Source: Escherichia phage Msk. From it: a stretch of 45,053 bases of DNA. Below, one piece after another: positions 3,194-40,155 of the stretch. Every line of letters begins with the position of its first letter. Positions within the stretch are counted from its first letter, which is position 1. The DNA is taken from sequence record MW057918, one strand, 5' to 3'. Both the position numbers and the translations under genes were made by a program. The notes under the pieces are model-generated. The model worked only from the letters and a program-made list of their open reading frames with translations. It was not told where the DNA came from and searched no databases.

Positions 3194-3595
3194 ATGAATG
3201 ATGCAATTTTGGCGTTTATGCGCTCTCTTGTTCCTGCGCTTAAAGCGGTGGATGACGAAGCAATTAATGTATGGATTGATTTGGCACGTCTATATGTATG
3301 CGAAAGCAAGTTTGGCGCAGACAAAGATAAGGCCGTAGGACTTTACGCGCTACACCTGATGCTTTCTGATGGCGCATTTAAGGGTGAGAGTGAAAGTCTG
3401 GAAACATACAGTCGAAGAATGGCAAGTTACGCACTGAGCGGTGAATTCTCTATCACCTATGATAACCAATCAGCAATCCAAGGTGATTTATCATCTTCCT
3501 CCTGGGGCCGCATGTACAAAGCACTGCTCCGCAAGAAAGGTGGCGGCTTTGGATTTATTACTTCCGCTGGTGGCGGCGGGTGCGGTTGCCGATGA
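3194..3595 (+). CDS. Hypothetical structural protein (head-tail joining region)
   Basis: ATG at 3194 preceded by GGAG; ORF track start at 3179 is a TTG extension; Gly-rich C-terminus. Confidence 0.4.
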   Translation: MNDAILAFMRSLVPALKAVDDEAINVWIDLARLYVCESKFGADKDKAVGLYALHLMLSDGAFKGESESLETYSRRMASYALSGEFSITYDNQSAIQGDLSSSSWGRMYKALLRKKGGGFGFITSAGGGGCGCR

Positions 3596-4811: not shown

Positions 4812-5468
4812 ATGGCTCATCTCAGCAATGGCACGCAGGTCTTCGTAGAAGGCTCTCGCGGTGACACAATTGATGTAACTGCAATTTCTAACGCAGCTAC
4901 CCCTGTTTTAACTGTATCTGACGCCTCTGGCTTGGTTGTTGGTGATTACCTGCTTTTCACCTCATCGGCCTCTACACTTCTGGCTGACAAGCAAGTACGA
5001 ATTACTGCAATTTCTGGCACTTCGGTAACAGTTGAAGGTATTGATACCTCCAACACCACTAAGTTCCCTGCTGGCTTAACTGGTGAAGTTGTTAAGATTA
5101 CTTCATGGTTCGAAGTCCCGTGTGTTCAGGACGTATCTACTGACGGCGGCGAACAGCAGTTTGTTAACTTCCAGTGCCTTTCTGATGACCGCGAACAGCA
5201 GATTCCGACTTATAAATCTGCGGTAACAAACACCTTCACCTTTGCTCACGAGTACACCAACCAGGTCTATCCGGTTCTGCGTAACTACGATGAGTCTGGC
5301 CAGGTTGTCGCGATTCGTCTGTTCGTACCTCGCGCTCAGGAAATGCGTTTGCAGTCCGGCACTATCACTTTCAACGACACCCCTACCATTGGTGTTAACG
5401 AGATCGAAACGGTATCCATCGCAGTATCAATTCGTGGTCGCCTGTCCTCTGTAGCAGCTGAAGTTTAA
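4812..5468 (+). CDS. Major tail protein
   Basis: 218-aa ORF immediately upstream of chaperone/tape-measure block, followed by strong terminator; Thr/Ser/Val-rich. Confidence 0.5.
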   Translation: MAHLSNGTQVFVEGSRGDTIDVTAISNAATPVLTVSDASGLVVGDYLLFTSSASTLLADKQVRITAISGTSVTVEGIDTSNTTKFPAGLTGEVVKITSWFEVPCVQDVSTDGGEQQFVNFQCLSDDREQQIPTYKSAVTNTFTFAHEYTNQVYPVLRNYDESGQVVAIRLFVPRAQEMRLQSGTITFNDTPTIGVNEIETVSIAVSIRGRLSSVAAEV

Positions 5469-24062: not shown

Positions 24063-24102
24063 ACAATGTATAGCGCCACTGTTTATCAATTCGTGCTATT
24101 TC
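24063..24102 (-). promoter_or_regulatory. Motif-class promoter (variant AAATAGCACGAATTGATAAA, 22 bp, TATAGT) for primase
   Basis: Motif at 24086-24102 minus strand, hexamer 22 bp downstream. Confidence 0.4.
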
Positions 24103-24578
24103 CCTTGCTCTTTAGCTTTTCGCGCTGCCTCGTTAGCGGCCTTAATCTTGCGCCATGATCGACACTCTGTCTTGGTGGCTAATTCAGCCTCAGTAACAAC
24201 ACGCAGCATGTGACGCTTTTTGCAACGAAGAGTTAGCGGCTTCCCGTTACCGTCGAATTGCAAATCTGGTCGGCAGAATGTGGCGCGAAAACCTTCTCCA
24301 TTTCGCTTGTAGTAGTTGTGCGACAGCTGGGCGCCACGTGCCGATATCATGCCGCGCTTAAACCATTGTTCTACAGCCTGTGGTGTTACCTTTAACTGCT
24401 TTGCGATATTCGCCTTTGTGCCGAAGAAATCAAGAACTATCTCCAGGCGTGCCCGTAACCCTGCTCTTACTTCATCCTTTAAAACGTAGTAACCTGAAGG
24501 TCGTTTACGTTGCTTTTTGTCTTCAGTGCGGATAGTTCCGTTGTTGCCGTTAATGGTTCTCTTGTCGACTGTATTCAT
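24096..24578 (-). CDS. Putative HTH DNA-binding regulator (Cro/YdaS-like) with basic C-terminus
   Basis: TKANIAKQLKVTPQAVEQWFKRG helix-turn-helix-like segment; divergent from helicase gene. Confidence 0.45.
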   Translation of the reverse strand: MNTVDKRTINGNNGTIRTEDKKQRKRPSGYYVLKDEVRAGLRARLEIVLDFFGTKANIAKQLKVTPQAVEQWFKRGMISARGAQLSHNYYKRNGEGFRATFCRPDLQFDGNGKPLTLRCKKRHMLRVVTEAELATKTECRSWRKIKAANEAARKAKEQGK

Positions 24579-38283: not shown

Positions 38284-38411
38284 TGCAAAGACTGGGATGA
38301 AGGTGAGCGCGCTAGTAGACTACCATACCACTTGCGGTACAGTGAGGAAGAGGTGGAGAAGGCCATCGAGTTCTTCCGGAAAGCGAAAGCTCTCCTGAAT
38401 GGTGAATATTA

Positions 38412-38627
38412 ATGCTTATAAAATGCGTTTACGTAAGGCAAGCCAATAGCCACAACCTTTCAGTTGTAAATGGCGGGATATACGTAGCTAAGCCAATACC
38501 TTGTTTTAATGGCTCATACCACATCAAGATTGATGACAATGAGTACATAGTAAAGACGGTAGGTGAAGCCCTCATGATAAAGAGCCTAGGTATCATAATG
38601 GCTAAATTCGAAATCGTTAGCAAATAG
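38412..38627 (+). CDS. Hypothetical small protein
   Basis: 71-aa ORF; stop codon lies inside motif copy at 38622-38641. Confidence 0.4.
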   Translation: MLIKCVYVRQANSHNLSVVNGGIYVAKPIPCFNGSYHIKIDDNEYIVKTVGEALMIKSLGIIMAKFEIVSK

Positions 38628-38668
38628 CACGAATTGCTAAACAATGGATCGGGTAGTCAGCTATGATT
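38622..38668 (+). promoter_or_regulatory. Motif-class promoter (CAAATAGCACGAATTGCTAAA, 22 bp, TATGAT)
   Basis: Perfect motif, hexamer at 38663-38668, leader taccccatcgacaacaaagagg. Confidence 0.5.
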
Positions 38669-38697
38669 ACCCCATCGACAACAAAGAGGAAATTAAG

Positions 38698-38886
38698 GTG
38701 ATTAACCTAACTGATGATGAGTGCATTGCTGTAATAAAGGTTTCTAAGTTGATGAGTCAAAGATTTGACACGCTTTCACTAAAGCATGGTTTTGCCTGGG
38801 AGATTTTTGATGATCATGTCAACCTGGATGACTTCATGTCAGCATCTATTAAGATTAAAGAATATATAAAAGAGGTGAGTGAATAA
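38698..38886 (+). CDS. Small ribbon-helix-helix-like protein, paralog 1 (GTG start)
   Basis: GTG after AAAGAGGAAA; INLTDDECIAVIK N-terminus resembles the two downstream paralogs; ATG at 38644 rejected because it sits between motif and -10. Confidence 0.35.
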   Translation: MINLTDDECIAVIKVSKLMSQRFDTLSLKHGFAWEIFDDHVNLDDFMSASIKIKEYIKEVSE

Positions 38887-38887
38887 G

Positions 38888-39079
38888 ATGATTACTATCA
38901 ACCTGTCAGAGGAGATGGCTGCCGACCTTCTTGATTCGCTAAGCCTGGTCAAAATTCGCTACGGAACTTACCACAGAAGCGAATCAGTAAAGGAGGTGGT
39001 AAAGCAAGTTAAGCAGCAGGTCGGAGTGGTCAAGATCGAATTGCAGAACACCCCATACGATTTTAAGAAAGGTGAATAA
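38888..39079 (+). CDS. Small ribbon-helix-helix-like protein, paralog 2
   Basis: ATG at 38888 after GAGGTGAG; N-terminus MITINLSEEMAADLLDSL has RHH-like beta-strand/helix pattern. Confidence 0.4.
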   Translation: MITINLSEEMAADLLDSLSLVKIRYGTYHRSESVKEVVKQVKQQVGVVKIELQNTPYDFKKGE

Positions 39080-39080
39080 G

Positions 39081-39299
39081 ATGATTACAATTAACCTGTC
39101 AGATAAGCAAGCAGCAGAACTGAAGTCCATGCTGTCAATCTTTGAGAAGCCAAATGACCGAGCAATTTCAAAAGAGGTTATTACTCAAATCAACAACCAG
39201 CAATTCGACGTAAGTGACTTCGAGTCATCACGACAGTACGAGGCGCTTAGCGTCAATGCGGCATACCTGACTAATTGGGATAAGGCGACTAATAAATGA
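39081..39299 (+). CDS. Small ribbon-helix-helix-like protein, paralog 3
   Basis: Identical start context AGGTGAATAAGATGATTAC; N-terminus MITINLSDKQAAELKSML. Confidence 0.4.
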   Translation: MITINLSDKQAAELKSMLSIFEKPNDRAISKEVITQINNQQFDVSDFESSRQYEALSVNAAYLTNWDKATNK

Positions 39300-39525
39300 T
39301 TCTAAATGTTGATTTTGCAAGCTCCAGAGCTTGTAATATTTTGGATTCCGACGCGGCATGAAGTTGATTGCTGTAGTAAACGAACGCGGAATCCTCACAG
39401 TTAAATAACCGAAGACTGGCGTGCATATGCACGTAAAAGAAAATGGCGGAAGAGTTTTTATCAGATCAATGTCTGGTGAAACAATGGTAGCATCCTCAAA
39501 AATATAAGTACAAGGCGAATAAGAA

Positions 39526-39669
39526 ATGATTTACATCCATACATACTACACTGGTAAGTTTAACAGCGTTAAGCACGTTCGAGTGTACGAGGGGTTTCAT
39601 AAAGCATTTGAGCAGCAGAGGGTTCTTGGTGGAACTATTAAGTGGTGTGAAGTTGTCAAAGAATGCTAA
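39526..39669 (+). CDS. Hypothetical small protein (47 aa)
   Basis: ATG with AAGGCGAATAAGAA upstream; stop overlaps motif; preferred over antisense ORF 39496-39708. Confidence 0.3.
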   Translation: MIYIHTYYTGKFNSVKHVRVYEGFHKAFEQQRVLGGTIKWCEVVKEC

Positions 39670-39713
39670 ATAGCACGAATTGCTAAACGCAGTCGCCACG
39701 GATGGCATATAAT
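39668..39713 (+). promoter_or_regulatory. Motif-class promoter (AAATAGCACGAATTGCTAAA, 22 bp, TATAAT)
   Basis: Perfect motif and perfect -10 hexamer at 39708-39713; leader tacccagtcaacacaaagagag. Confidence 0.55.
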
Positions 39714-39743
39714 TACCCAGTCAACACAAAGAGAGATTGAGAA

Positions 39744-39914
39744 ATGTTAACGATAATGATGACTAACCTTGAGTTAAATGAATTCAGCATTCTAGCTTTT
39801 ATTATGCCAATACTGCTAATTCTTCCATTCGCTGCGTACGTCGTAATGAAAGATAATGCAGAGTGGAAGCGGATTGATAAGAAAATCAAAGAAGCAACGC
39901 ACAGGAATAAGTAA
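39744..39914 (+). CDS. Small membrane protein
   Basis: 56-aa ORF with hydrophobic core FSILAFIMPILLILPFAAYVV. Confidence 0.35.
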   Translation: MLTIMMTNLELNEFSILAFIMPILLILPFAAYVVMKDNAEWKRIDKKIKEATHRNK

Positions 39915-39915
39915 A

Positions 39916-40155
39916 ATGTTCGGACTAAATGAAGCTATGTTTAATGCAGTAAAGCGCCAGGCTAAAAAGCTCAACGATAAGTATGAGTCATTAAGCAAGC
40001 TTGACCGCAAGAATGATAAGTTAGTTGCGGGTATAATCACTGAGATTTGGCAACCAGTTTCTACAGTTATTAGCAGGGATCGATTTGTGTGGGTAGCCGG
40101 GTATCTCAAAGGTCGAGTTGGTCATGACGAGAATGGGAATAGCCTTTATGAGTGA
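39916..40155 (+). CDS. Hypothetical protein
   Basis: Start at internal Met MFGLNEAMF; ORF-track 5' extension overlaps upstream gene. Confidence 0.35.
   Translation: MFGLNEAMFNAVKRQAKKLNDKYESLSKLDRKNDKLVAGIITEIWQPVSTVISRDRFVWVAGYLKGRVGHDENGNSLYE

Follow-up and report, generated by a model that had tools for sequence, protein, structure and literature searches.

Two of three consecutive small genes in Escherichia phage vB_ecoS_OzMSK, here termed g2 and g3, are tandem paralogues of the DUF7180 family that share a duplicated start junction, and the gene that precedes them, g1, is an unrelated neighbour. This outcome partly confirms the first-pass annotation, which had taken all three for tandem paralogues of a ribbon-helix-helix (RHH) type.

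Locus and gene organization

The window, that is, the whole stretch of DNA analysed, was identified by megablast as a circular permutation of vB_ecoS_OzMSK (Drexlerviridae; PQ659294.1, 45,053 bp; hereafter OzMSK), window coordinates being those of the record plus 36771. The nearest relatives are Braunvirinae/Rtp-like Drexlerviridae, for example JeanPiccard, JulesPiccard and the 'Campylobacter phage' A110b. Three plus-strand open reading frames had been placed at 38698-38886, 38888-39079 and 39081-39299, and these coordinates hold. They correspond to the GenBank coding sequences CPTvBecoSOzMSK_007, CPTvBecoSOzMSK_008 and CPTvBecoSOzMSK_009, annotated as hypothetical proteins, and are real, tightly coupled genes that lie after a single promoter-like module.

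38685-38690, plus strand: Shine-Dalgarno sequence AGAGGA of g1, read from the sequence
38698-38886, plus strand: g1, 62 aa, GTG start, acidic (pI 4.8), helical, of its own family
38888-39079, plus strand: g2, 63-aa DUF7180 paralogue
39081-39299, plus strand: g3, 72-aa full-length member of DUF7180 / phrog_16063

For g1, GenBank gives a ribosome-binding site feature at record positions 1916-1919, and the phage P818 carries an equivalent of the g1 Shine-Dalgarno sequence (GAGAGGAAAGAAAG-ATG). The stop-to-start gap is 1 nt at both the g1/g2 and the g2/g3 junction, with the Shine-Dalgarno sequence of the downstream gene located within the last codons of the preceding one; the three genes are translationally coupled. 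The GenBank start of CPTvBecoSOzMSK_008 is the GTG at 38879, which gives a product beginning MNKMITINL. The ATG at 38888 is the likelier start of g2, because all 41 of its 41 homologues begin with MITINLS. An Rfam scan of positions 38300-39800 gave no match to an RNA family.

g2 and g3 are paralogues and g1 stands apart

The relationship between g2 and g3 is apparent from pairwise and profile comparisons alike. The proteins begin with MITINLSE and MITINLSD, respectively, and BLASTP aligns them with 19/44 identities (E 2e-6). Both exceed the Pfam gathering score of 27 bits for DUF7180 (PF23805), g3 with 78.3 bits over residues 1-71 and g2 with 31.4 bits over residues 1-45; g2 has a short C-terminus of its own, its N-terminal 45 residues alone fitting the family model. 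Both likewise match phrog_16063 (E 2.1e-39 for g3). Homologues numbered 41 for g2, each at least 67% identical, and 341 for g3.

The tandem paralogy proposed for the three genes thus stands for g2 and g3 but not for g1, which is without pairwise or profile similarity to either. BLASTP of g1 against g2 and g3 gave no match at the N-terminus, g1 and four divergent homologues matched no Pfam family (DUF7180 included) and no PHROG, and an alignment of 10 g1 sequences, compared with DUF7180 in hhalign, returned 9% over 12 columns. That all three genes might nevertheless be diverged descendants of one ancestral small RHH gene, as first supposed, could draw on the start of g1, (M/V)INLTDDE, which is followed by a predicted helix, and on gene order, since a DUF7180 gene comes immediately after a g1-family gene in five of six phage contexts (OzMSK, A110b, P818, SU57 and IME253, but not P817). 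However, the resemblance of the g1 start to g2 and g3 spans only about five residues. The N-termini of the g1 family read MINLT, MIYLT, MIKLT or MNKLT, so that N3 is not kept (MIY, MIK, MNK) and only L4, T5 and E8 are conserved; the variable 'INL' and the retention of just these three residues indicate that the L-T-x-E-E of g1 is a generic strand end and helix N-cap. In addition, g1 is average among the 222 window open reading frames scored against an RHH profile, and its family gave 0.3% with RHH in hhalign, that is, no RHH signal. Common ancestry of the three is therefore most improbable; it is largely refuted by sequence, and we reject it for g1.

Judged by its sequence, g1 is not a DUF7180 member and belongs to a separate small acidic family, which is represented by 13 protein clusters and by 7 phage records and conserves W34, E35, F37, D38 and a V-N-L-D motif. 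The g2-g3 pair is also found behind other genes, encoding a P-loop NTPase in JeanPiccard or, in two metagenomic contigs, a protein of 86 aa. As a side observation, compared with that of A110b, g1 of OzMSK has two inserted nucleotides (TA) close to its 3' end, within 38860-38886, which change the C-terminus to EYIKEVSE (most homologues end in EYKRGE) and the stop codon from TGA to a TAA adjoining the g2 start.

The junction repeat and the origin of the tandem

A common start context had been described for the last two genes as AGGTGA(G/A)TAAGATGATTAC. Such a context is real for g2 and g3, but the exact shared string is the 17-mer GTGAATAAGATGATTAC; the string first given is exact at g3 and needs four extra bases at g2.

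38879-38895, plus strand: junction 17-mer GTGAATAAGATGATTAC, copy 1, g1 stop / g2 start
39072-39088, plus strand: junction 17-mer GTGAATAAGATGATTAC, copy 2, g2 stop / g3 start

These are the only two exact copies in the window, where 0 would be expected. The repeat contains a Shine-Dalgarno-like GGTGA in the last codons of the upstream gene, the stop codon TAA, one base and the ATG. Counting the first codons with the junction, about 33 of 35 nucleotides are identical between g2 and g3, and two of the differences in this region are synonymous (ACT/ACA and ATC/ATT). Synonymous changes in the MITINLS codons of g2, g3 and T1 indicate that constraint acts at the level of the protein.

The g2-g3 duplication may have been generated when the repeated junction, together with the N-terminal codons, recombined unequally, which would have made neighbours of two alleles of one gene that differ in their cassette. 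We infer this from the conserved junction and N-terminal codons together with the recombination of cassettes and tails among alleles. In P0112, the g2 cassette (KIRYG...) is joined to a tail of the g3 type in a single-copy allele. Phages of this kind encode Erf and exonuclease VIII recombinases, which are annotated in T1, TLS and KP36.

Distribution and cassette structure of DUF7180

DUF7180 is the 'MITINLS' protein of T1, TLS and the Rtp-like Drexlerviridae. Its members include PHROGs 16063, 9709, 11097 and 8335, T1 ST60 (114 aa, beginning MITINLSDKQA, 110 bits on the DUF7180 model), TLS gp21 (83 aa, beginning MITINLSEEQA, 108 bits) and JeanPiccard bas02_0068/0069; all 27 of the 27 aligned family members match the model. 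When 1.84 billion representative proteins were searched exhaustively with a profile, just 10 representatives were recovered, all from the same phage family, and no distant annotated relative outside it. Of 50,697 phage records, 106 carry a g3-type gene, and every one of these is a T1-like phage of enterobacteria; 4 have a gene of the g2 type. The MITINLS start and the location in a small-gene block upstream of terS/terminase are common to g2, g3 and the family at large. Duplication of DUF7180 is confined to a small subclade: most of the phages have one copy, whereas OzMSK has two in tandem, as do A110b, JeanPiccard, JulesPiccard and some metagenomic contigs. In the literature, we found no mention of DUF7180 or of the BASEL locus tags, nor the sequence of the promoter motif described below.

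The members are alike at their ends and differ in the middle. An exact MITINLS start is present in 147 of 172 members. Between residue ~16 and a block reading E-V-x-x-Q-I-N-N-Q-Q-F-D, these 172 members carry at least 14 cassette types that are unrelated to one another and measure 14-20 residues; the types of T1 and TLS come in addition.

38933-38992, plus strand: hypervariable central cassette of g2, residues 16-35, from the alignment
39126-39173, plus strand: hypervariable central cassette of g3, residues 16-31, from the alignment

The central cassette of g2, DSLSLVKIRYGTYHRSESVK, is the most NikR-like variant. Cassettes are recombined with differing C-termini, as in P0112, the 52-mer of P818 and P0113/P0162. 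Even between OzMSK and A110b, its nearest relative at this locus, where g1 is 93% and g2 97% identical, the g3 cassette is different. The A110b record (MG065688.1, UNVERIFIED) has peculiarities of its own: the phage is placed in Drexlerviridae/Braunvirinae and is nearly identical to coliphages although its label names Campylobacter jejuni as the host, and its g2 homologue has ATT at the position of the ATG start. These oddities may reflect a mislabelled host or a sequence error.

Evidence for a ribbon-helix-helix fold

The RHH reading of the first-pass annotation is plausible for g2 and g3, where a sequence pattern and above-background profile support speak for it, and is unsupported for g1. 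The start I2-T3-I4-N5-L6-S7-(D/E), with an amphipathic helix after it, parallels L5-T6-I7-T8-L9-S10-E11 of CopG and V4-T5-I6-T7-L8-D9 of NikR; CopG, NikR and the other reference sequences were validated against the PDB. The N-terminal domain of NikR and CopG (RHH_1-type; PDB 1q5v, 2bj1, 2wvb and 1b01) has the same order of strand, helix A, turn and helix B, and roughly the same element lengths, as would DUF7180, and the pattern h-T-h-(T/N)-L-(S/D)-(E/D) at the strand/helix junction is common to both. At helix B, g2 resembles NikR in G-x3-R-S-E-x-(V/I)-(K/R)-(E/D)-(V/I), its G26-T-Y-H-R-S-E-S-V-K-E-V corresponding to G-Y-N-N-R-S-E-A-I-R-D-I. Several cassettes have an R/N-S-x-E type of motif ahead of helix B (HRSES, TRSDSQ, NRSVEQ and SRSSEQ among the forms observed).

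Against a mini-profile of six NikR, CopG and antitoxin sequences, assembled after the resemblance to NikR had been noticed and therefore a partly post hoc reference, hhalign gave the g2 family 46.8% over 38 columns that span the strand, helix A, G-x3-RSE and helix B, with a range of 47-60% over 29-38 columns for the NikR/CopG references; the whole DUF7180 family scored 14-26% against this same mini-profile, again chosen post hoc. With NikR alone, g2 reached 60% (score 23.2). Equally small profiles of bona fide RHH families gave comparable values for CopG-NikR (54%, 22.5) and Arc+Mnt-NikR (61%, 23.9), so that the g2-NikR score is about that between genuine RHH families; other RHH pairs scored far lower (Arc+Mnt-CopG, 5%; Rv0298-Arc+Mnt, 0.2%). 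When alignment columns were shuffled, the g2-family score of 22.65 compared with a null of 9.8±2.4 and was reached by 1 of 200 shuffles, and the whole-family score of 20.7 compared with 8.2±1.8 and was reached by none of 200. The shuffle controls correspond to z of ~5-7, and reversed alignments gave ~1%. Among the 222 window open reading frames of 40-110 aa ranked by the RHH profile, g2 and g3 came first and second.

AlphaFold2 (AF2) models assign to g3 an extended segment at 1-7 and helices at 8-21 and 25-38, and to g2 an extended segment at 1-7 and helices at 8-25 and 32-53. The order of predicted elements in these models is that of an RHH protein (pLDDT 62-65).

Evidence against, and a protein-binding alternative

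Curated resources do not recognize an RHH fold. A Pfam scan of 27 DUF7180 members at E<=10 found no RHH family, the models of the Pfam clan Met_repress (RHH_1, Arc, MetJ etc.) gave no significant match to the g2/g3 family, and HMM searches of PDB sequences yielded no RHH protein and nothing relevant. The NCBIfam match to NikR (E 0.05, in 2 of 27 members) is at noise level, amid 14 unrelated families. The single sequences of T1 and TLS gave ~1% in hhalign. As alternative RHH references, CopG alone (5%) and Arc/Mnt (~0.1-0.4%) were tried and set aside.

The comparison with NikR and CopG also brings out differences. The strand of CopG and NikR has an arginine that contacts bases, whereas the candidate strand of g2 and g3 starts at Met1 and has no basic residue. 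Unlike NikR and CopG, the DUF7180 proteins are not basic (net charge 0 for the domain and 0 to -2 for the whole proteins), and they fall below every curated RHH threshold. Furthermore, the would-be RHH core and the phosphate-binding turn coincide with the hypervariable part of the family, whose length ranges over 14-20 residues. In the AF2 monomers of g2 and g3, the helices pack as a long hairpin, and the models match only helical hairpins or coiled coils.

Such features would also suit proteins that bind other proteins through a helical hairpin and not DNA, and that serve as effectors in host takeover or anti-defence. A conserved partner would then be bound by the invariant N-terminal peptide and QINNQQFD, while an arms race would drive exchange of the cassette, whether for evasion of host sensors or for keeping up with a variable host target. 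The acidic or neutral character of g2 and g3 would fit this possibility, as would the many cassette types and their exchange even between the closest relatives, the variable copy number, the absence of the gene from KP36 and the position ahead of the terminase among numerous small accessory genes. On the other hand, the models are of low confidence and their structural matches non-specific (all Foldseek E >1), no known anti-defence family was matched, and the full-length, in-register similarity of g2 to the RHH domain of NikR would go unexplained. We regard an effector role of this kind as possible but rather doubtful.

Weighing both sides, we favour the reading that the shared N-terminal domain of DUF7180 (~41-45 residues) may form a minimal RHH dimer and that the proteins may be DNA-binding regulators, an interpretation that is nearly, though not quite, an even call. 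A precedent comes from phage P22, whose small paralogous RHH repressors Arc and Mnt, of ~50-80 residues, are encoded close together in one regulatory region and act as separate homo-oligomers. Arc and Mnt have no detectable profile similarity to DUF7180 (hhalign 0.1-0.4%). Their strand residues differ from each other, giving different operator specificity, whereas the strand is identical in g2 and g3.

The promoter-like module and the transcription unit

A 21-bp element, AAATAGCACGAATTGCTAAAC, is present in 11 copies in the window, where 0 would be expected.

16779 (minus), 17534 (minus), 19177 (plus), 23037 (plus), 24081 (minus), 27085 (plus), 27295 (plus), 30864 (plus), 35854 (minus), 38622 (plus) and 39668 (plus): copies of AAATAGCACGAATTGCTAAAC found by motif scan
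38622-38642, plus strand: upstream element AAATAGCACGAATTGCTAAAC of g1-g2-g3, one of the 11 window copies
38662-38667, plus strand: -10-like hexamer TATGAT, 22 bp after TTGCTA

Ten of the 11 copies are followed, after exactly 22 bp, by a -10-like hexamer (TATnAT), the leader TACCnCATCGAAACGA and a Shine-Dalgarno sequence with a start codon. Most copies of the module point in the direction of the genes that follow, and many overlap the stop codon of the gene before; the same module is found in T1, TLS, IME253, P817, P818 and KP36. The 22 bp, in place of 17 bp, between TTGCTA and the hexamer set the two apart from a standard sigma-70 -35/-10 pair. A sigma-54 promoter was dropped as an interpretation, since the spacing does not suit -24/-12, and so was a symmetric operator, the palindrome of which is broken by one-armed variants.

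Several modules contain inverted repeats. GGGTA (38651-38655) and TACCC (38668-38672) bracket the hexamer at 38662, and in T1 (~3555-3580), TLS (~5160-5185) and IME253 the hexamer is bracketed by AAGGCCA TTTGATATAG TGGCCTT; the recurrence of such repeats in many modules would place the hexamer in the loop of a potential hairpin. In P818 (2429-2470 of contig L003) and in metagenomic contig L009 (1132-1175), the 22-bp spacer harbours a GC-rich hairpin and T-run (CCCGCCCCGGCGGGTTTTGTT), which implies that a terminator and the next promoter overlap there.

It had been suggested that the small proteins regulate the promoters of this motif. In its strongest form, DUF7180 would supply the dedicated regulators of the genome-wide motif, the strand reading the invariant ATAGCAC..TTGCTAAA. 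The MITINLS strand and the motif are indeed both nearly invariant in T1, TLS and the Rtp-like phages, and the commonest form of the motif has TAGCA-N5-TGCTA, which could fit two RHH dimers or one helix-turn-helix (HTH) dimer. The suggestion is weakened, however, by Klebsiella phage KP36 (Webervirus), which has at least 12 modules of the same architecture and no DUF7180 or MITINLS open reading frame (best hmmsearch E 0.3); the occurrence of modules without the protein argues that DUF7180 is probably not an obligatory factor of the module promoters. Moreover, in frequent variants (TAGCACTTTTTGTTA) only one arm of the palindrome is disrupted, the g1-g3 unit itself follows such a promoter, and a conserved HTH protein offers another candidate. 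A dedicated role of DUF7180 at the motif thus seems very unlikely. The HTH-type protein, of 160 aa and encoded at 24096-24578 on the minus strand, is the orthologue of T1 ST23, TLS gp57 and KP36 gp55, all of which are annotated 'transcriptional regulator', and is a candidate for binding the promoter motif. A promoter module, at 24081 on the minus strand, lies just downstream of the stop codon of its gene.

Downstream of g3, a stretch that is unannotated in GenBank contains the remains of a further gene.

39296-39506, plus strand: decayed gene with a frameshift and an in-frame TAA; the intact copy encodes 72-75 aa

It reads MILNVDFASSRACNIL..., is then frameshifted and continues as MKLIAVVNERGILTVK*PKTGVHMHVKENGGRVFIRSMSGETMVASSKI, the asterisk being the in-frame TAA. 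An intact gene of 72-75 aa follows g3 in the metagenomic contigs L009 and L010. A search for terminator patterns past g3 gave a single match, at 39315-39336 (1 found against 1.3 expected). As this hairpin lies within the decayed gene and does not exceed chance, it is doubtful as a terminator; with no credible terminator after g3, the transcription unit probably extends to about 39669. The copy of the 21-bp element at 38622 precedes g1, and the next, at 39668, comes after a gene whose product begins MIYIH. In TLS (gp21), SU57, JeanPiccard and IME253, the DUF7180 gene is directly followed by this MIYIH gene, whereas in OzMSK the decayed gene lies between g3 and it. The arrangement of a small-gene block upstream of the terminase, with the MIYIH gene, is the same in OzMSK, T1, TLS, SU57, JeanPiccard and IME253. 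Across Drexlerviridae subfamilies we also observed a syntenic block made up of the DUF7180 gene, the gene for MIYIH(T/S)Y... (39526-39669 in the window) and, further on, that for MFGLNEA... (39856-40155), present in OzMSK and TLS and partial in T1 and KP36.

Proposed function and significance

If g2 and g3 are RHH proteins, they would be small DNA-binding regulators within the small-gene block upstream of the terminase. The strand would run from I2 to S7 with T3 and N5 pointing outward, followed by helix A, an N-cap turn of the R-S-x-E type and a helix B extending to QINNQQ. Since the strand is invariant while the core of helix A, turn and helix B is swapped between alleles, we propose that the two proteins would read the same DNA half-site, probably as separate homodimers. 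The genome-wide promoter motif is probably not the target of g2 and g3 in the capacity of an obligatory factor. A host-takeover role, the other function suggested by the first-pass annotation, is a possible candidate.

It is conceivable, if unlikely, that DUF7180 is a minimal RHH class specific to Drexlerviridae, with a frozen ribbon, an exchangeable dimer-core cassette and mutually exclusive homodimers. The regulators would then begin right at the DNA-reading strand, and the half-site would be constant over T1, TLS and the Rtp-like phages. The cassette of helix A, turn and helix B would decide which subunits pair, so that tandem copies, or the alleles of co-infecting phages, would occupy the same sites as exclusive homodimers. 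To our knowledge, such a logic of 'immunity by dimerization' has not been described for RHH proteins.

The identification of g2 and g3 as further members of a known DUF is in itself a modest result, a routine and mostly ordinary re-annotation. If the RHH assignment is true, however, it would give the first functional handle on DUF7180, a family present in the classic phage T1 and in ~100 sequenced relatives, and would single out candidate regulators for a family of phages with an essentially uncharacterized transcription programme. The constant ends and swapped centre amount to a clear case of cassette-style diversification inside a 70-residue protein, and the DUF7180 cassettes would be a useful test case for the way in which phages vary an interaction surface.
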